Below the pieces are notes generated by a model. The model was not told where the DNA came from, did no database searches, and saw only the letters and a program-made list of their open reading frames with translations. Below, one piece after another: positions 1 through 54,220 of a stretch of DNA of 64,000 nt. The translations under genes and the position numbers were made by a program. The stretch covers positions 36,454 through 100,453 of the forward strand of contig SWDM01000012.1 of the NCBI GenBank assembly GCA_005116835.1. The letters are read 5' to 3'. The stretch comes from Nitrospira sp. (lineage in GTDB: Bacteria; Nitrospirota; Nitrospiria; Nitrospirales; Nitrospiraceae). The number at the start of each line of letters is the position of its first letter. Positions within the stretch are counted from its first letter, which is position 1.

Positions 1-161
1 TGATGGCCGACTTAGGCGTGCGCCATCTTGGTGTCACGAAAGATGGTGAGATAGTCGGGGTCATCTCGGTGCGCGATCTATTGTTCTATTATAAGAGGTA
101 TGCGCAATCGAAGATTAGTCCGGAGGCGCCGTACAGTGAACCAAAAATATTCCAAGACTGA
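1..161 (+). CDS. CBS-domain protein, C-terminal fragment (5' end outside window)
   Basis: Frame is open from the window edge to TGA 159-161. The tail ...LGVRHLGVTKDGEIVGVISVRDLLFYYKR resembles the end of a CBS motif. Confidence 0.5.
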   Translation, partial: MADLGVRHLGVTKDGEIVGVISVRDLLFYYKRYAQSKISPEAPYSEPKIFQD

Positions 162-287
162 CGGATGCTGAAAACGGTCACCAACTTCGTTCTCAGTCGC
201 ATGCCTCCCTGCGACGTACCCCAGAGGGTACGCCTCAGTCGCCATGCTCCCTGCGGCCTTGCCGGAAGGCCGTTTTGAACATCCTCG
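162..287 (+). repeat. Palindromic MITE/REP-like element (PE), copy A, type 1 core
   Basis: Left end cggatgctgaaaacgg, apical hairpin cgtacc-ccagag-ggtacg, right end ccgttttgaacatcctcg. Begins 1 nt after the TGA of the upstream CDS. Confidence 0.8.
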
Positions 288-26136: not shown

Positions 26137-27501
26137 ATGCCTGAAGCTCCGGTTAAGATGTACATCGATAAGCTATTGAAAGATAGCCGTATTGTGGCGC
26201 GATCTCTCGCATTTCTGTCTGGCCCTGTGAAAGACAAAGCGTTGCGGGCAATGGCGGATCGATTGGCTGCTGACGAAGAGAAGATTCTAGTGGCGAATGA
26301 GAAGGATGTGGACGCAGTCGGAAAGTCTTTCGAGGCCGACGTCATGAAGGATCGGATGAAGGCCGCCGTGGCGCGTCTACGCCTGACCTCGGACGATATC
26401 AAGGAGATGGCCGATCGTCTCCGCTTGATCGCGGACTTGCCGGATCCGGTCGGCGTCGTTACTTCACGATGGGAGCGGCCGAACGGATTGCAAGTGAGCC
26501 GTGTCCGTGTCCCGATCGGCATCATCGGTGTCGTATCGGAACTGGGCCCGCTTATTACCGTGGAGTCGATCGCGCTCTGCTTCAAGTCCGGGAACCTCTG
26601 TGTGTTTCGCGGTGCGCCGGAATGGCGCTTGACGCAACAGGCGATTGGGGCCGGATTACGCGAAGCTGCGGAACAGCATGGAATCCCGTCCGGCGCATGG
26701 ATCGTTATTGACCGTCCGGAGAAAGAGGTGGCGGTGGAGTTGATTCGAGCCGGTAAAAGTCTCGATGCGATAATTCCTCGTGGCGGAGCCGGCCTTCGCA
26801 GGGCTGTCGTCGAGCAGGCGAAGATGCCGGTGTTGTGTCACGAAGAGGGCCTCACATACATGTATGTGGATGCAGACACCGATCTGCCGGTCGCGCAAAA
26901 TGTGGCAATCAATTCCAAGGTGCAGAAGGCCATCGCGCCGAACTCGCTCGACACGTTGCTTGTAGAACAGGTGATCGGGCGGCAGTTTTTACCTCCGCTG
27001 GTCAATCGCATGCTCGAAGAGTTTAAGATCGAGGTGCGGGCCTGTCCAAAGACTATGGCCCTCATGGGGCAAATGGCGATGACAGGACATGCCTCGATTA
27101 TCTTGGCAAAGGAAGAGGATTGGCATACCCAATTTCAGTCGCCTGTATTGGCCGTGAAAATGGTTGTAAATATGGACGAAGCCTTGGCGCACATCGTGGC
27201 GCACGGACCCTGTCTCACGGCGGTTATCGCGACCACGAGCTATGAGTCAGCCTTGCGGTTCACGCGCGAAGTGGATGCCAGCGCGGTGTTTGTCAATGCA
27301 TCGTCACGCCTCAATGCCGGCGATAGCTACGGAATGGGCGCCGATATCGGACTCAGCGGCTCGCACCTCCATGCCAAGGGGCCGATTGGCCTTGAGCAAT
27401 TGACTTGCGAAAAGTATGTCGCGTTCGGTATGGGCCAGCTGCGCTACCCGCATCCGGTGCCGGAGGCGTATTTTGACGCGATCATGCTCAAAAGGCCGTA
27501 G
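26137..27501 (+). CDS. proA: Glutamate-5-semialdehyde dehydrogenase (gamma-glutamyl phosphate reductase)
   Basis: ...RVPIGIIGVV.E..P...VNASSRLNAGDSYGMGADIGLSGSHLHAKGPIGLEQLT resembles the ProA C-terminal signature. Confidence 0.8.
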   Translation: MPEAPVKMYIDKLLKDSRIVARSLAFLSGPVKDKALRAMADRLAADEEKILVANEKDVDAVGKSFEADVMKDRMKAAVARLRLTSDDIKEMADRLRLIADLPDPVGVVTSRWERPNGLQVSRVRVPIGIIGVVSELGPLITVESIALCFKSGNLCVFRGAPEWRLTQQAIGAGLREAAEQHGIPSGAWIVIDRPEKEVAVELIRAGKSLDAIIPRGGAGLRRAVVEQAKMPVLCHEEGLTYMYVDADTDLPVAQNVAINSKVQKAIAPNSLDTLLVEQVIGRQFLPPLVNRMLEEFKIEVRACPKTMALMGQMAMTGHASIILAKEEDWHTQFQSPVLAVKMVVNMDEALAHIVAHGPCLTAVIATTSYESALRFTREVDASAVFVNASSRLNAGDSYGMGADIGLSGSHLHAKGPIGLEQLTCEKYVAFGMGQLRYPHPVPEAYFDAIMLKRP

Positions 27502-27623
27502 TCGCCTGCTGAAAACGCTCTCCAGCTTCGTTCTCAGTCGTTCGAACCACTCAACGTACCCTCACCGCGTACGCCTCGTGATTCGAACTCCTTGCGGCCT
27601 TGCTGGAAAACGTTTTGAGCAGG
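27502..27623 (+). repeat. PE copy C (type 1 core)
   Basis: Starts 1 nt after the proA TAG. Both termini carry the same variant (cgcctgctgaaaa ... ttttgagcaggcg). Confidence 0.8.
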
Positions 27624-27641
27624 CGTGTCGAGACCTCATCA

Positions 27642-32407: not shown

Positions 32408-32534
32408 GCAGGATGCTCAAAAAGGTCGCCCAGCAAGGCCGCACCTCCTCGGCAGCCCCTCGTTTCACGTTTCACGTCTCACGTTTAACGGTCCCTAAGC
32501 GAGAACGCCGCTGGCGGACTTTTTCAGCATCCTG
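32408..32534 (-). repeat. PE copy D (type 2 core, minus orientation)
   Basis: On the minus strand it reads caggatgctgaaaaagtccgccagc...cgtgagacgtgaaacgtgaaacg...gcggccttgctgggcgacctttttgagcatcctgc. Abuts the TAA (32535-32537) of the minus-strand yajD. Confidence 0.8.
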
Positions 32535-32864
32535 TTAGGTCTTCCGCTTGAGCAAGCTCTGGAGTTGGGCAAAGGGAGTGAAGGTCGAGGGTTGATCTTG
32601 CTCTCGGTCAGGCGCCGGCTCGTCGGATGGGTGGGGCACCTGATGCCGCTGGTGCTCATTGTCGTGGCAGTACAGACAGAGCAATTCCCAATTGCTACCG
32701 TCCGGCGGATTATTGTCATGGTCGTGGTCTTTGTGATGGACCGTGAGTTGACTCAGCTTCTTACCGTCAAACTCACGCCCGCAGTGTCCACAGATCCAGG
32801 GAAACATTTTGAGTGCGCGTTCCCGGTAGGTCTGTTGCAGCTTTACCTGGGTGTTCCGTGCCAT
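32535..32864 (-). CDS. yajD: YajD-family HNH nuclease
   Basis: CGHCGR...LTVHHKDHDHDNNPPDGSNWELLCLYCHDNEH. Confidence 0.8.
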   Translation of the reverse strand: MARNTQVKLQQTYRERALKMFPWICGHCGREFDGKKLSQLTVHHKDHDHDNNPPDGSNWELLCLYCHDNEHQRHQVPHPSDEPAPDREQDQPSTFTPFAQLQSLLKRKT

Positions 32865-34381: not shown

Positions 34382-35305
34382 GTTTGGAACGCTTGGATTT
34401 GTGCCGGAGTGAGTTGGCGGTCCTCCACGTCGCGCTGAATTTTCGAGATACGCGAAGGCGAAATGCGAAAGCGAATGGCCACCGTCTGCAACGGTTCATT
34501 CGCCGCGCGCCGTAACAGATGGACAGCGGTTTGGTAGGCCTCGCGATGTGAGCGATCGAGAAGGGCGCCCAAACGGACTCGATAAGCGGCGGCGACCTGC
34601 TTGAGCACCTCGTCGGCAGAAAGTCGGGTAGGACGGCCCTGTGCTGACGGGACATTCACCAGAGACTTGCCGCGCACCACGCGGTCGATCCGCTCCAGAA
34701 ATTCTGGACTGCCAAGGTAAATCTGACCGATTACGTCTCTCCACGGCGAGGGTTGATTCGCTCCGTCCGCGACGAATCGGCGGTAGGCCGCTTGTGCTGT
34801 TGAGGCTGAGTGATCGAAGAGGGTGAGCAACGACGGCACATCGAGCCAGTCCGGTATCTCCTGCAATCCGGCTGTTGCGCGATAGCTGCTCCACACCCAC
34901 TCGCTCGTGTCTCCTACGAGTCCGGCCCGCACAGGATTCAACACAACATAGCGACACAGCTCAAGCAGGTAGCTCTCCTTTTCCACCAACAGACTTTTGA
35001 AGCGGCCCTGCAGGAGATGGCCGACCCGCCTGATGCCGACGATTGAACCATTGCGTATAGGTGCCATGGAGTCGTTTCAGACCACGGCTTAGGTTGGGCT
35101 CGGGGGTTTCTATTACCAGGTGATAGTGATTTCCCATCAAGCAGTAGACGTAACAGCGCCACTGCTGTTGCTGCACTTCACGGCCCAGGAGCCAGAGGAA
35201 GTGGCGGCGGTCCCCATCATCCAGAAAAATGGCTTGTTGCGCATTGCCTCGGGCGGTGACGTGATAGAGTGCGCCGGGAAATTCCAAGCGAAGAGGACGA
35301 GCCAT
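34363..35305 (-). pseudogene. HUH/Y1 (IS200-like, RAYT-type) transposase with DnaA-C-like HTH tail, frameshifted
   Basis: LRLEFPGALYHVTARGN...GNHYHLVIET...TQWFNRRHQ | RVGHLLQGRFKSLLVEKESYLLEL...NPVRAGL. The two frames join with one extra G in caGGcgggtc on the minus strand (about 35029-35034). Confidence 0.75.
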
Positions 35306-41951: not shown

Positions 41952-42074
41952 GCAGGATGCTGAAAAAGTTCGCCAGCATCGTTCTCGTATCGCTTCCAAA
42001 GACCGTGAAACGCGAAACGCGAGGATCAACCTCGGAGCTGCGGCCTTACTGGACAGCCTTTTTGAACATCCTGC
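41952..42074 (+). repeat. PE copy E (type 2 core)
   Basis: gcaggatgctgaaaaagttcgccagc...ccgtgaaacgcgaaacgcgagg...cctcggagctgcggcc...cctttttgaacatcctgc. Confidence 0.8.
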
Positions 42075-42427
42075 GGCTTTGTTGATGTCGACGCCAATAT
42101 GGAAGGTTCCACTGGCATTTAGTGCATCAACTGAGTTTTTCGCAGCCTGATGGATATGTAATATCAGAGCCTCACACGACGAGCATTAACTCTGATGTGA
42201 ATCGTTTTTGATTCGCCGATGAATCTAAATTGATTCATCGCGCTGAATGATTATGATGGTGGAGGATGGGTAAGTGAGGGGAGTGTATAACGAGTTCATG
42301 GGGTGTCCCGGGCTCCGGTTTAACCCGCATAACTCATGGCTTTTCGCCGCGAAATGACGGAGTGGCGTAGGACTCGCTTGAGTCAGGTATTGGAAGTTTC
42401 GGTAGAAGTCTTCGTGAGTTAAACGGG

Positions 42428-44442: not shown

Positions 44443-44787
44443 ATGAAAAAGATTGTGATCAATAAGAGCTACGATAAGTTTTCAGTCAGTCACCTGGCAT
44501 TTGTACGATTGCGTGAACTGGGCCAGCAGGATGCGCTCAAGGAAACGGATCTCGGGGCCTATTGGCCTGAGGCTGCGACGCCGAGAGAGCCGAGTCTCAA
44601 TCAGTGCGGAGTCATGATTCCCCGCGACGATTTGAAGCTGGCCCAAGTGGTGGAGGAACTCGGTGTGGCTGCCAATGGCCATGGCGCAGAGCTACGGGTA
44701 GTGACGATTCCAGACGATATTCGATGGGAAATCACAGCGGTGGGCGGAAGAGAGCACGTGAGCGAGGTTCACCGGACCTGGGCGTAG
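44443..44787 (+). CDS. Hypothetical protein
   Basis: 114-aa ORF. No family recognised. Its TAG overlaps the first base of PE copy G. Confidence 0.5.
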   Translation: MKKIVINKSYDKFSVSHLAFVRLRELGQQDALKETDLGAYWPEAATPREPSLNQCGVMIPRDDLKLAQVVEELGVAANGHGAELRVVTIPDDIRWEITAVGGREHVSEVHRTWA

Positions 44788-44910
44788 CAGGATGCTGAAA
44801 AAGTCCGCCAGCTTTGTTCTCGCATCGCTCAGAGGCTCAACGTACCGAAACGTACGCCTCGCCTCTTCGCTCGCTGCGGCCGCGCTGGACGGCCATTTTG
44901 AGCATCCTGC
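44787..44910 (+). repeat. PE copy G (type 1 core; used here as reference copy)
   Basis: gcaggatgctgaaaaagtccgccagc...ctcaacgtaccgaaacgtacgcctc...gctggacggccattttgagcatcctgc. Confidence 0.85.
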
Positions 44911-44997
44911 TGGTTGTCCCTGGGTGAGTCGGAACTCTATCTTTGCGAGTCGCGCTTGTCGCGCACCTCTCGCCAGTCTCGCCCATGAAACTACAGG

Positions 44998-45246
44998 CTA
45001 GGCCTTCTTCGGAAGGTGGCTCTGTGTCATGTCCAGTGTCCCTTCCAGCAGCAACTTTGCTCGTTGAAACGAGTTAGATCTTGCTTCCCATTCCGTCTTG
45101 TAGCCCTTCGAGGGATCTTGGTCCTGTAGGCCTCCGTCGAGGTGGCTGAACCCAGGAATCGAAAACCTGCATAGCCATTTACCACTCTTGATTTGGCTGG
45201 TCACCAAGATCACTTTCTGGCCTTTGGCATAGCAGACTTCTGTCAT
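44998..45246 (-). CDS. Hypothetical protein
   Basis: 82-aa ORF. No family recognised. Confidence 0.35.
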   Translation of the reverse strand: MTEVCYAKGQKVILVTSQIKSGKWLCRFSIPGFSHLDGGLQDQDPSKGYKTEWEARSNSFQRAKLLLEGTLDMTQSHLPKKA

Positions 45247-47029: not shown

Positions 47030-47154
47030 GCAGGCTGTTGACAAAGTCCGCCAGCGGCGTTCTCGCATCGTTCAGACCCTCAACGTACCGCAAGGGTACG
47101 CCTCGGGCCTTCACTCGCTGCGGCCTTGCTGGACGGCCTTTCTGAACAGCCTGC
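47030..47154 (+). repeat. PE copy H (type 1 core)
   Basis: Both termini carry gcaggctgtt instead of gcaggatgct. Starts 9 nt after the upstream TAA. Confidence 0.8.
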
Positions 47155-51699: not shown

Positions 51700-52833
51700 A
51701 TGGCCCATTCCTATACTCCAGGCTTAACCGTGACAGAGCACACGACAGTCCGACGTCGTCGGATGTTGTCGTTGCCTGGCACTGTATTGGTTGCGGCTGG
51801 GGAGGTCGTGCGGGCGAATCAGGCGGTCGCTCGCGCGGAACTGCCAGGGAAGGTCTATCCCTTGAATCTCGCCAATCAGTTGGGGGTGGGACCGGACGAG
51901 ATCCAGGAGTATTTGATCAAGAAGGCCGGCGACAGGGTGCAGAAGGACGAGATTCTGGCGGAGAACAAACCGCTTATCAAGTGGCTCAAGACGGAGGTTC
52001 GCTCACCTGTGACAGGTGTTGTGGAATCTGTGTCCATGGTCACGGGGCAGGTGTTGTTGCGGGAGCCGCCGCGTGTATTGGAGTTGTTGGGTTATGTGGA
52101 CGGGCGCATCGTCGAGGTGATCCCACAGCAGGGTGCCGTGGTCGAAACTGATTGCAGTCTGGTGCAGGGCATCTTCGGCATCGGTGGGGAAACCAGGGGT
52201 GAGATCATGCTCGCGGTGACATCGCCGGACGAAGCGCTGACCCCTCGTCAACTCACGGCAGAGATGAAAGGCAAGATCGTTGTGGGAGGTTCCTTTATCT
52301 CTTCCGACGCGCTCACTCGAGCAAAAGAGGTGGGAGTAGCAGGCTTGGTGATCGGCGGCATTCACGATAAGGATTTGCGCGCATTGCTGGGCTACGACCT
52401 TGGCGTGGCCATCACCGGTACGGAGCAGGTCGGCTTTACCCTGATCCTCACCGAAGGATTCGGCGCCATTCCCATGGCCGGTAAAACATTCACGTTGCTT
52501 TCCGCCCATGCAGGTCAGCCTGCTTCTATTTCAGGCGCCACACAAATTCGTGCCGGTGTCATTCGTCCGGAGATCATCATCCCCACACAGCTAAGTGCAG
52601 TTGGCACTCTCAGTGCGGTTGCCGTGCCGCAGCGGGAAGGTATCAGGATCGGTGACCAAGTTCGGATCATTCGAGATCCCTTGTTCGGCAAGATCGGAGA
52701 AGTCTCAAGTCTGCCATCGGAGCTCCAGAAGATTCCGACCGAGAGCGAGGTACGTGTGATGGAAGTTCGCTTTGCCGATGGCAGCAAGGCTGTGATTCCG
52801 CGGACGAATATTGAATTGATTGAAGGAGCTTAG
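51700..52833 (+). CDS. Hypothetical soluble protein with barrel-sandwich-like N-region and KOW-like C-terminus
   Basis: 377 aa. ...VRSPVTGVVESV... hybrid-barrel-like segment and IGDQVRIIRDPLFGKIGEV KOW-like segment. Weak motif-level call. Confidence 0.6.
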   Translation: MAHSYTPGLTVTEHTTVRRRRMLSLPGTVLVAAGEVVRANQAVARAELPGKVYPLNLANQLGVGPDEIQEYLIKKAGDRVQKDEILAENKPLIKWLKTEVRSPVTGVVESVSMVTGQVLLREPPRVLELLGYVDGRIVEVIPQQGAVVETDCSLVQGIFGIGGETRGEIMLAVTSPDEALTPRQLTAEMKGKIVVGGSFISSDALTRAKEVGVAGLVIGGIHDKDLRALLGYDLGVAITGTEQVGFTLILTEGFGAIPMAGKTFTLLSAHAGQPASISGATQIRAGVIRPEIIIPTQLSAVGTLSAVAVPQREGIRIGDQVRIIRDPLFGKIGEVSSLPSELQKIPTESEVRVMEVRFADGSKAVIPRTNIELIEGA

Positions 52834-52959
52834 CGGGATGCTGAAAACGTCTGCCAGCTTCGTTCTCGGCTCTTCGAAATCCTCAACGTACCCCAGAGGG
52901 TACGCCTCCGGTTTCGACTCGCCTGCGGCCTTGCTGAACAGACGTTTTGAGCATCCCGC
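52833..52959 (+). repeat. PE copy I (type 1 core)
   Basis: Overlaps the last base of the upstream TAG. Both termini carry gcgggatgct / agcatcccgc and acgtctg / cagacgt variants. Confidence 0.85.
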
Positions 52960-52975
52960 CTTATGGAAGGCATTG

Positions 52976-54220
52976 ATGCTCCTGCTCATGACTGTTCTGA
53001 GTCAGTCATGGTCGCCGGTGTTTGCCCAAACCGACATCCAGACGAAGACGCCACTCGCGCCGCCGCAAGATGTTCGTGTGTTCGATACACCGAGCGATGG
53101 TGGCGATAGCCTAACCGTGATATGGGCTCCCGCTCCCTACGATAGTGCTGCGGTGAGGTATCAGGTATTACTCAGTGAGGGAACGTCGGTCGCAGATCCG
53201 GCTACCATGAAGGTCGTGGCGGAATTTCCGGCGAACCAGCGCTATGTCCGAGAATCCAAGTGGCCCTGGTGGACGAGGCCGGCGACCGGCGACCAGCACC
53301 AGTATACGCTGAGGAGTGGAAGGGGAGTCGAGCTGAAGAGCGGAACTCTATACAGCATCACCGTGGCTACGGTGCTGAACGACGAACGCAGCATTGCCGC
53401 GCCGGGACAGGCCGCGCCGGAACCGAATTGGATCAATTGGAACCAGATGAATAATCTTCTATTGGCGCTCCTGTTCGGCGGGATCGTGTTCTACGCCATC
53501 GGTACCGCCAGAAAACGTGAGATTTTCCTCCGGCGCATTCCCGGCCTCGATGCAGTGGATGAGGCGATCGGCCGCGCAACCGAGTTGGGTAAGCCGATTC
53601 TGTACATGACCGGCGCCCATGACATGAGCGATCCATCGACCATTGCGGCGGCGGTTATTCTTGGGCGTGTGGCCAAACGAGCGGCGGCCTATGAGACCGA
53701 TTTACTGGTACCCCACCGCGAGCCGATCACCATGGCGGTGTGCCAGGAGATTACGAAGCAGGCCTATCTGGAAGCAGGCAAACCCGATCTTTACAAGGAC
53801 GATTCCAATTTCTTCATTACGTCGGATCAGTTCAGCTATACCGCGGCGGTGGACGGCATCATGTTGCGGAAAAAACCTGCAGCGAACTTCTTTATGGGAC
53901 ATTATTTTGCCGAGGCATTGCTTCTGACGGAAACGGGCGCGAGCACCGGCGCAATCCAAATCGCCGGGACGGACTCCGATCATCAGCTGCCGTTCTTCGT
54001 CACTACCTGCGATTACACCTTGATCGGGGAAGAACTCTACGCTGCCAGCGCGTACCTCTCCAGAGAGCCGGTGCAGGTCGGCACATTGCGTGGGCAAGAC
54101 ATCGGCAAAGCCCTCATCCTCGGCGTCCTTGGTATCGGTACGATACTGGCTACTCTTGGGATCCTGTTCGATGCCCAGTGGCCAAAATTATTCCTAGACT
54201 TTTTCAGGGACGTGAAATGA
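52976..54220 (+). CDS. Membrane protein: signal peptide, FN3-like domain, TM, large conserved domain, C-terminal TM
   Basis: MLLLMTVLSQSWSPVFAQ; PPQDVRVFDTPSDGGDSLTVIWAPAPY...YQV (FN3-like); hydrophobic helices at about aa 150 and at the C-terminus. The N-terminal track extension lies in PE copy I and is rejected. Confidence 0.6.
   Translation: MLLLMTVLSQSWSPVFAQTDIQTKTPLAPPQDVRVFDTPSDGGDSLTVIWAPAPYDSAAVRYQVLLSEGTSVADPATMKVVAEFPANQRYVRESKWPWWTRPATGDQHQYTLRSGRGVELKSGTLYSITVATVLNDERSIAAPGQAAPEPNWINWNQMNNLLLALLFGGIVFYAIGTARKREIFLRRIPGLDAVDEAIGRATELGKPILYMTGAHDMSDPSTIAAAVILGRVAKRAAAYETDLLVPHREPITMAVCQEITKQAYLEAGKPDLYKDDSNFFITSDQFSYTAAVDGIMLRKKPAANFFMGHYFAEALLLTETGASTGAIQIAGTDSDHQLPFFVTTCDYTLIGEELYAASAYLSREPVQVGTLRGQDIGKALILGVLGIGTILATLGILFDAQWPKLFLDFFRDVK

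Follow-up and report, generated by a model that had tools for sequence, protein, structure and literature searches.

The window analysed here, a stretch of 64,000 nucleotides from Nitrospira sp., contains at 44787-44910 an imperfect palindrome of about 124 nt that abuts the stop codon of an upstream ORF (Table 1). Its sequence, GCAGGATGCT-G-AAAAAG...CATTTT-G-AGCATCCTGC, is as described in a first-pass annotation of this DNA, which had counted 44787 as the first base of the element. This base, however, is the G of the TAG stop codon and the last base of a YTAR target, and it lies outside the element. Folding of both strands, as had been suggested there, predicts one long imperfect hairpin on either of them, with -57.7 kcal/mol (z -5.3) for the + strand and -66.4 kcal/mol (z -6.8) for the - strand. 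No curated model of Rfam 15 reached its gathering score over the window, and none matched 44760-44940 at E <= 1. A coding reading of the palindrome (ATG at 44792, 69-aa ORF, 44792-45001) was rejected: copies of the element differ in length by 1-2 nt, so that no frame is kept, and an in-frame TGA in the right arm is true of only some length classes. Spurious small ORFs in such spacers, that at 44792-45001 being an example, are explained by the element family described below, which is of relevance to gene callers.

Table 1. Parts of the focal element and further copies in the window (positions are those of the window).
Feature	Position	Strand	Sequence or basis
Stop codon TAG of upstream ORF 44443-44787	44785..44787	+	ORF list
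Left target copy at the focal element, GTAG (family consensus YTAR)	ending 44787	+	left-flank logo, 106 copies
Left arm: left terminal inverted repeat and subterminal helix	44788..44812	+	CAGGATGCT-G-AAAAAG-T-CCG-CCAGC
Mismatched G, left arm	44797	+	anchor L0
Core with invariant unpaired motifs GTTCTC and CTGCGGCC and covarying middle helix	44813..44883	+	columns of alignment A1
Apical hairpin within the core, CGTAC / GTACG	44841-44845 / 44852-44856	+	covarying pairs in A1
Right arm: internal inverted repeat	44884..44909	+	GCTGG-A-CGG-C-CATTTT-G-AGCATCCTG
Bulged A, right arm	44889	+	
Mismatched G, right arm	44900	+	anchor R0
Copy A	160..287	+	
Copy C, arms divergent yet complementary	27501..27627	+	TCGCCTGCT / AGCAGGCG
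Copy D, heptamer-type core	32408..32535	-	
Copy E, long form	41952..42149	+	palindrome 41952-42074, then 75-nt tail
True right terminal repeat of copy E, GAGTTTTTCGCAGCCTG	42133-42149	+	flanks CTGG / ATGG
Copy H, subfamily GCAGGCTGTTGACAAAG	47030..47154	+	arms GCAGGCTGTT / AACAGCCTGC
Copy I, fills the entire gap from a TAG stop to the next gene	52833..52959	+	arms GCGGGATGCT / AGCATCCCGC

Distribution of the element family

A profile HMM was trained on seven copies of the window and searched with nhmmer against the 3.94-Mb, 24-contig genome that contains the window. It gave 170 matches, 107 of which were full length; the full copies have palindromes of 123-128 nt, with length differences that are not multiples of three. 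The family is small, non-coding and dispersed, as is typical of miniature inverted-repeat elements (MITEs). For the comparisons below, the arms of 106 full copies were read gap-free, each copy being anchored on both mismatched G's (L0 and R0).

An exact left-arm pattern of 25 specified bases is present in at least 119 contigs, all of them from Nitrospira/Nitrospiraceae/Nitrospirota MAGs. A covariance model built from alignment A1 (see below) found matches in 115 of 121 sampled Nitrospiraceae genomes, representing 37 of 39 genus-level groups, and across the phylum its strong matches fall in the Nitrospiraceae, plus a few copies in a sister family and in one other family. The element family is specific to the Nitrospiraceae and nearly universal there. 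A literature search found no publication on a Nitrospira repeat of such kind; the family is undescribed, and hairpin MITEs as such are already known.

Architecture of the transposing unit

The left flanks of the 106 copies follow the consensus YTAR (Y 80, T 82, A 76, R 97). A target duplication directly after the right arm of the ~124-nt palindrome is found in at most 2 of these 106 copies. Further downstream the result is different: of the 52 copies whose left flank is YTAR, 17 have their own word again 75-77 nt past the right arm, as against 5 with any other YTAR word (binomial p = 4e-7). An identical 4-mer on both sides was detected in 19 copies, and in 17 of these it is a YTAR word (CTAG, CTAA, TTAA or TTAG). 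Only the long form of about 200 nt shows the 4-bp duplication. The same distance is marked by an inverted copy of each element's own left repeat, which ends ~75 nt downstream of the right arm in 22 of 105 copies and once in a control window. At the end of the 75-nt tail stands GAGTTTTTCCGCAGCCTG, which is the true inverted counterpart of the left end; when the left end CAGGATGCTGAAAAAG is compared with the reverse complement of the right end, CAGGCTGCGGAAAAAC, 13 of 16 positions match. Moreover, the right terminal repeat varies with the subfamily to which the left one belongs. The far right end of subfamily H, ...TTTGTCAACAGACTG, mirrors its left end CAGGCTGTTGACAAAG, and the internal arm reads CTTTCTGAACAGCCTG. 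Recognisable long forms make up about one third of the copies, the remainder, including the focal copy, having no recognisable tail end.

The focal element belongs to a family of non-autonomous DNA transposons (MITEs). The transposing unit of ~200 nt consists of a left terminal repeat CAGGATGCTGAAAAAG, a body of ~125 nt that folds back on an internal inverted copy of the left terminal repeat, a tail of 75 nt and, as its true right end, the terminal repeat ...TTTTTCCGCAGCCTG. Insertion takes place at YTAR, with duplication of these 4 bp. The sequence agcatcctgc, previously taken for the right terminus of the element, is the internal inverted repeat, and in the long form the real right end lies 75 nt further on. 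An autonomous partner was not found in this genome: pairs of family ends 0.6-3 kb apart enclose no transposase gene and only ordinary genes between separate copies. The only DDE_Tnp_1 element (C17:75852-76687, IS5-family) has different ends, GGCACTGTTATCAAAGG, yet YTAR flanks.

A long hairpin of inverted repeats with compensatory changes has also been described for REPINs, which are mobilised by RAYT (Y1 HUH) transposases, and the genome does contain three Y1_Tnp matches, two of them RAYT-like. In addition, an IS110-family element sits inside one copy of the Nitrospira palindrome, just as IS621 inserts into REPs of E. coli. The RAYT-like genes, however, are not flanked by the Nitrospira palindrome; the REP that flanks the C5 gene is another one, GTAGCCTGTCCCC. 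No copy lies within 6 kb of the Y1_Tnp genes of C23 and C5, the copy nearest to the C4 match is ~2.5 kb off, and the RAYT scores are below the NCBIfam cut-off. The Nitrospira element also makes a 4-bp target duplication, which HUH single-strand transposition is not known to do. An origin as REP/REPIN is largely refuted by these data, and we give it almost no probability.

Covariation of the arms

For every one of the 15 outer pairs, Watson-Crick pairing is seen in 86-98% of the 106 copies of this genome, and as many as four types of pair occur at a single position. The 68 distinct arm haplotypes hold 94 Watson-Crick-preserving double changes, compared to 9.4 expected for independent arms and 2-9 in a control in which the partner was slid by 1-3 nt. 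Copies from other genomes gave 49 such double changes as against 4.0 expected. Pairs were also counted on a named structure of 34 pairs in an alignment of 89 copies made with MAFFT (alignment A1). RNAalifold recovered the outer helix and the apex from this alignment; double changes occur at 27 of the 34 pairs, 190 cells are changed on both sides and 91.1% of the cells are paired, the outer helix covarying at 16 of 16 pairs. The covariation score of 0.201 was reached by none of 500 shuffles (0.071) and compares with 0.03-0.06 for slid partners.

The first-pass annotation had claimed, from the copies of the window, that pairing is preserved by double changes, and had named a covariation test over the genomic copies as the way to check this. 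In the larger copy set the covariation is far above the shuffled and slid controls, so that the claim is borne out. Its examples were changes against the common terminus on both arms of copies C, H and I, and all three are present in the sequence. The pairing ACGTCTG / CAGACGT, reported as a further double change of copy I, likewise exists; it arose, however, through a change on one arm only, by which a pair was gained. Some of the arm variation represents subfamily structure that is common to the arms and the true right end. In the most distant genomes the outer arms are entirely different and still complementary, for example GGGTCGGTT/AACCGACCC and GGGAATGTT/AACATTCCC. These distant copies retain TGAAAA...TTTTGA including the G-G opposition, and are still located directly behind TAG, TAA or TGA.

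The double changes include many transversion pairs without wobble intermediates. This is also what would be expected if there were no selection on the fold and the covariation were a mutational by-product, either of template switching at a quasi-palindrome during replication or of gene conversion among the >100 copies, by each of which a change on one arm is transferred to the other. The irregular positions of the hairpin and the comparison of orthologous loci bear on this explanation.

Fixed irregularities of the hairpin

The opposition of two G's (44797 and 44900 in the focal copy) is present in 209 of 221 copies overall, namely in 97 of 106 copies of this genome and in 112 of 115 copies from other genomes. 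The assertion that one G-G mismatch is kept across copies therefore holds well beyond the window, including distant genera with wholly different outer arms. A change of the right-arm G to C was found in none of the 221 copies and a change of the left G to C in 7. The true right end carries C where the internal right arm carries the mismatched G. Besides the G-G mismatch, the bulged A and a number of unpaired motifs have remained fixed. Templated correction from arm to arm should erase the mismatch and the bulged A, and their persistence in 209 of 221 copies and 37 genera argues against a by-product of mutation. The deeply conserved G-G and the unpaired motifs seem to point to a specific binding partner.

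In the explanation that we favour below, the mismatched G also sets the internal repeat apart from the true right end, so that a transposase should not take it for an end. According to a rival explanation the hairpin could matter as DNA for transposition, in that the transposase or some host factor would have to recognise a single-stranded or cruciform fold-back. Strand or end would then be told apart by the G-G, which is C-C on the other strand, and by the bulged base, as happens with irregular hairpins and enzymes of the IS200/IS605 type; the covariation would reflect which master copies remain mobile. That the internal repeat differs from the true right end exactly at the mismatch, and that a perfect complement never arises (0/221), fits well with such a role. 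The 4-bp target duplication, on the other hand, points to a DDE-type cut-and-paste enzyme, and enzymes of this type are not known to need an internal hairpin.

Turnover and conservation at orthologous loci

At the focal site the upstream gene ends at the same codon (TAA, TAG or TGA) in 11 relatives. The element is present in none of the 11, and each has a different filler of 93-398 nt from the stop codon onward. Copy C occurs at the orthologous site in about ten relatives, at least five of which were aligned, and 5 others are without it; in 4 aligned relatives that lack copy C a hairpin of CGTGAAA heptamers is found in the same place. Copy I is orthologous in two relatives and absent from at least three. 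Presence and absence at orthologous sites, as known for MITEs, is thus seen for the focal copy, copy C and copy I. A clean empty site was not found at any of these three loci in the relatives, as another hairpin element was always there.

At the copy C locus the palindrome of the five aligned orthologues has an identity of 0.87-0.94 to the window copy, whereas the values are 0.85-0.87 for the upstream coding sequence, 0.73-0.79 for a 48-nt tail and 0.76-0.79 downstream. At this locus the tail and the right end have diverged more rapidly since insertion than the flanks have, and the palindrome has remained conserved. The private arms of copy C, TCGCCTGCT / AGCAGGCG, are retained in all six species. 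The orthologue in relative G010 shows two nearby double substitutions, A-T to C-G and C-G to G-C, and in relative G011 the G-G has become C-G. At copy I the pair L-8/R+8 is A-T in one species and G-C in the other two.

Some of these changes are compatible with a purely mutational origin of the covariation: two nearby pairs were changed together in the G010 orthologue, as one templated event would give, and the G-G of G011 looks 'repaired' to C-G. Some of the double changes may well have come about by templated correction from one arm to the other. Such correction cannot explain the lasting mismatch and bulge, nor the drift of the tail beside a stable palindrome. The copy C palindrome is more conserved than the adjacent coding DNA while its tail drifts, and its private arms were not overwritten from consensus copies in any of the six species. 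We therefore consider it quite improbable that the covariation arose without selection on the fold.

Base pairing is kept by compensatory changes, also between orthologous copies of different species, and the fold is under selection. Because the changes in place occur in copies that have no right end and cannot move, pairing is maintained after insertion. The earlier view that pairing is actively preserved and that the palindrome is not drifting junk agrees with the covariation, the compensatory substitutions across species and the slow evolution of the copy C palindrome. The latter two observations weigh against a hairpin that is needed as DNA for transposition: compensatory changes in place and conservation above background include short forms without tail or right end, which are unable to transpose.

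Stop codons and the role of the hairpin

A co-oriented ORF of at least 80 codons adjoins 63 of 102 copies. The abutting stop codons are TAG in 34, TAA in 20 and TGA in 8 of 62 cases, compared to a share of 39% for TGA among the stops genome-wide (p = 5e-6), in keeping with a target of YTAR. As TAG or TAA is contained in YTAR, it is mostly right at a stop codon that copies survive. Among the long forms, 14 have a stop codon at the left duplication, and 9 have one at the right duplication, where it belongs to a convergent gene (p = 0.40). Contact of the right end with a stop codon is nearly as common as that of the left; therefore the abutment and the rule of orientation are largely a matter of target choice and of the survival of harmless insertions. 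When all copies are counted, the side of the palindrome is directed toward the upstream gene in 78 as against 27 (p = 6e-7). A bias of strand is weak: of the 106 copies, 68 have the orientation of the local GC skew and 60 that of most genes nearby. A recoding hairpin of the selenocysteine or pyrrolysine type was considered and dropped, as the abutting stops include TAA besides TAG, and TGA is depleted.

Since most copies lie directly behind a co-oriented gene, they are unavoidably part of its transcript, and we infer that the most likely function of the hairpin is that of an RNA module at the 3' end. Copy I, which takes up the entire spacer before the next gene, and comparable MITEs, which work via RNase III or RNase E or resemble terminators (PMC10969869), speak for a role as RNA as well. 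Two modes of action can be envisaged. The inner helix G-N-CCG-CCAGC / GCTGG-A-CGG-N-C is preceded by AAAAA and followed by TTTTT in nearly all copies and encloses a loop of ~70 nt; a GC-rich helix flanked by A5 and U5 would resemble a bidirectional intrinsic terminator. A simple terminator scan gave 20 sites with 15.8 expected, none of them at the copies. The imperfect duplex of ~55 bp would be suited to cleavage by a double-strand-specific RNase, for example RNase III, and the fixed irregularities might guide this processing.

Several properties of the hairpin are neutral in this respect or speak against a role as RNA. Among the non-Watson-Crick cells of the outer stem, read on the + strand, A-C outnumbers G-T in this genome (30 vs 8), and the two are about equal in copies from other genomes (13 vs 14). 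Wobble pairs of the + strand are not favoured, and the counts give no clear sign of an RNA helix formed by this strand; the strictly Watson-Crick covariation speaks for a DNA fold-back. Of the 106 copies, 94 fold more stably on the - strand. Unpaired positions number 2.43 of 23 in copies next to a co-oriented gene and 2.85 in the rest (p = 0.35); the integrity of the hairpin does not differ with the transcriptional context, which also speaks for a function as DNA. With the changes in immobile short forms and the type of target duplication on the other side of the balance, we regard a role of the hairpin as DNA in transposition as unlikely. The explanation that we favour, and consider rather probable as a whole, combines a MITE family, selection on the fold and a hairpin that most likely serves as an RNA 3'-end module.

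A more far-reaching version of this RNA module can be put forward only tentatively, and we assign a low probability to it. The palindrome might be domesticated: Nitrospira genes would need a long hairpin from the stop codon onward as a transcript end or processing signal, and this need would be met interchangeably by the MITE body or by the unrelated hairpins of CGTGAAA heptamers that sister species have at this position. If this were true, a dedicated RNA- or DNA-binding factor would dock at the G-G, the bulged A and the unpaired motifs GTTCTC / CTGCGGCC, and an entire bacterial family would be using a transposon family as its standard signal of gene ends.

In soils, waters and treatment plants Nitrospira oxidise nitrite and carry out complete ammonia oxidation; their gene regulation is almost unstudied. 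A repeat that is present at least 100 times per genome, on the stop codons of a sizeable share of the genes, and that has kept its shape for longer than the separation of species is a strong candidate for a 3'-end signal of general use, be it in termination, mRNA stability or processing, and provides a handle for studies of transcript ends. It is also a natural case of a mobile element whose structured part outlasts its mobility, which bears on the co-option of MITEs.

Comparison with known systems

In ~16-bp terminal inverted repeats, a 4-bp YTAR duplication, a non-coding length of ~200 nt, more than 100 copies per genome and presence or absence between species, the Nitrospira family resembles the MITEs of the IS5 group. 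It differs from these by the lack of an autonomous partner with matching ends in this genome, by a third, internal copy of the terminal repeat that forms the 124-nt hairpin together with the left end, and by the fact that this hairpin outlives the rest of the element.

The Correia elements (CREE, NEMIS) of Neisseria are likewise hairpin MITEs of 100-200 bp that are co-transcribed with their neighbours and occur in many copies and size classes. Their sequence, with Correia repeats of 26 bp, is unrelated, and the host range of the Nitrospira family is the Nitrospiraceae. Correia elements duplicate TA and are found mostly 5' of genes, whereas the Nitrospira family duplicates YTAR and lies 3' of genes on stop codons.

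Hairpin MITEs with effects at the transcript level are known: Correia with RNase III, ERIC with RNase E, and the terminator-like SPRITE; ERIC, Correia and QMITE2 are examples of hairpin MITEs at gene ends (PMC10969869). In Correia the long duplex formed from the repeats is a substrate of RNase III, and in Yersinia the insertion of ERIC at 3' ends of genes affects mRNA levels via an RNase E site in the 3' repeat (PMC10969869). ERIC (IRU, 127 bp, Enterobacteriaceae) is similar to the Nitrospira family in size, in its build as an imperfect palindrome and in its family-wide distribution, but has no sequence or Rfam relationship to it; ERIC-type repeats have TA flanks (PMC3184786), and an architecture with a tail or a third repeat is not described for ERIC.

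With REPINs and their RAYTs the family has in common the long inverted-repeat hairpin, compensatory changes on both sides of the hairpin (PMC3116915) and the use as an insertion target by IS110-family elements. It is distinguished by its target duplication, by the absence of a linked RAYT and by arms that are not small palindromes. SPRITE of pneumococci, which resembles rho-independent terminators, and bcr1 of Bacillus, which is transcribed and keeps its structure by compensatory changes (PMC3184786), are further mobile repeats that resemble or act as 3' structures of transcripts; hosts, sizes and target duplications differ from those of the Nitrospira family. Distinctive in the latter are the architecture of three repeats, with a fold-back body that outlives the transposon, and the deeply conserved G-G and unpaired motifs.

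Hairpins at stop codons

At two sites where the window carries a MITE copy directly after a stop codon, the orthologous loci of species lacking that copy carry a hairpin made of runs of CGTGAAA-type heptamers instead. This is the case at L169–L172 for the site of copy C (window ~27500) and at L176, L178 and L180 for that of copy I (window ~52830). The heptamer hairpins begin at exactly the same stop codon as the MITE copy, and thus two unrelated hairpin elements swap at one position. This suggests that the feature kept at these sites is a hairpin directly after the stop codon, as such.

The probable start of the next gene lies ~20 nt or less from the right end of copy I (window 52949–52985). 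This leaves no space for a promoter of the gene's own, so copy I must be transcribed as part of an operon. A 69-aa ORF (window 44792–45001, + strand) takes its ATG from the left arm of the MITE (GGATGCTGAAAAAG...). Most copies will create similar spurious ORFs, which may be annotated as hypothetical proteins.

Composition and arrangement of the copies

Across all 106 copies of its own genome, the + strand of the MITE is rich in C (32.6%, against 26.5% G), and the − strand folds on average 6.4 kcal/mol more stably than the + strand. A-C oppositions outnumber G-T oppositions by ~4 to 1 in these copies, an excess not seen in MITE copies of other genomes. At C16:276860-277067 a full copy runs straight into the 3' two-thirds of another (junction ...CCTGC|AAATCCTCAACG); either one copy inserted into another here or the element was partly duplicated in tandem. 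The covariance model found weak matches in several other Nitrospirota families (genomes G165–G234; E 1e-7 to 1e-13, at most 25 per genome); these could be distant relatives of the MITE or just similar hairpins.

Transposases in the same genome

The sole DDE_Tnp_1 match in the genome belongs to a small IS5-family element. Its flanks conform to YTAR, and a YTAR-targeting transposase is therefore present; the ends of the element do not match those of the MITE. Y1_Tnp matches number three. The one on C5 is flanked on both sides by an inverted repeat distinct from the MITE, AAAAGGGGACAGGCTACTTT / AAAGTAGCCTGTCCCCTTTTC; this repeat would represent another family, of the REP type.

Transposase-related features of the genome (G000)
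Feature	Location	Locus	Strand	Details
MITE copy split by IS110-family element	C19:267882-269167	L135		316-aa transposase; PF01548 + PF02371
Small IS5-family element	C17:75852-76687			inverted ends GGCACTGTTATCAAAGG; flanks TTAG / CTAG
Y1_Tnp match	C5:2643-2978	L121		IS200/RAYT-like
Y1_Tnp match	C23:492-815	L120		IS200/RAYT-like
Y1_Tnp match, short fragment	window ~35027-35269		−	IS200/RAYT-like

One MITE copy outside the window, on C19, is interrupted by a 1.15-kb IS110-family insertion sequence; it lies between a urease alpha-subunit-like ORF on one side and the next gene on the other. A second copy of the IS110 element (C14:91.4-92.5 kb) is 68% identical to this one and sits outside any MITE copy. 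REP sequences are known targets of IS110 relatives, e.g. IS621.
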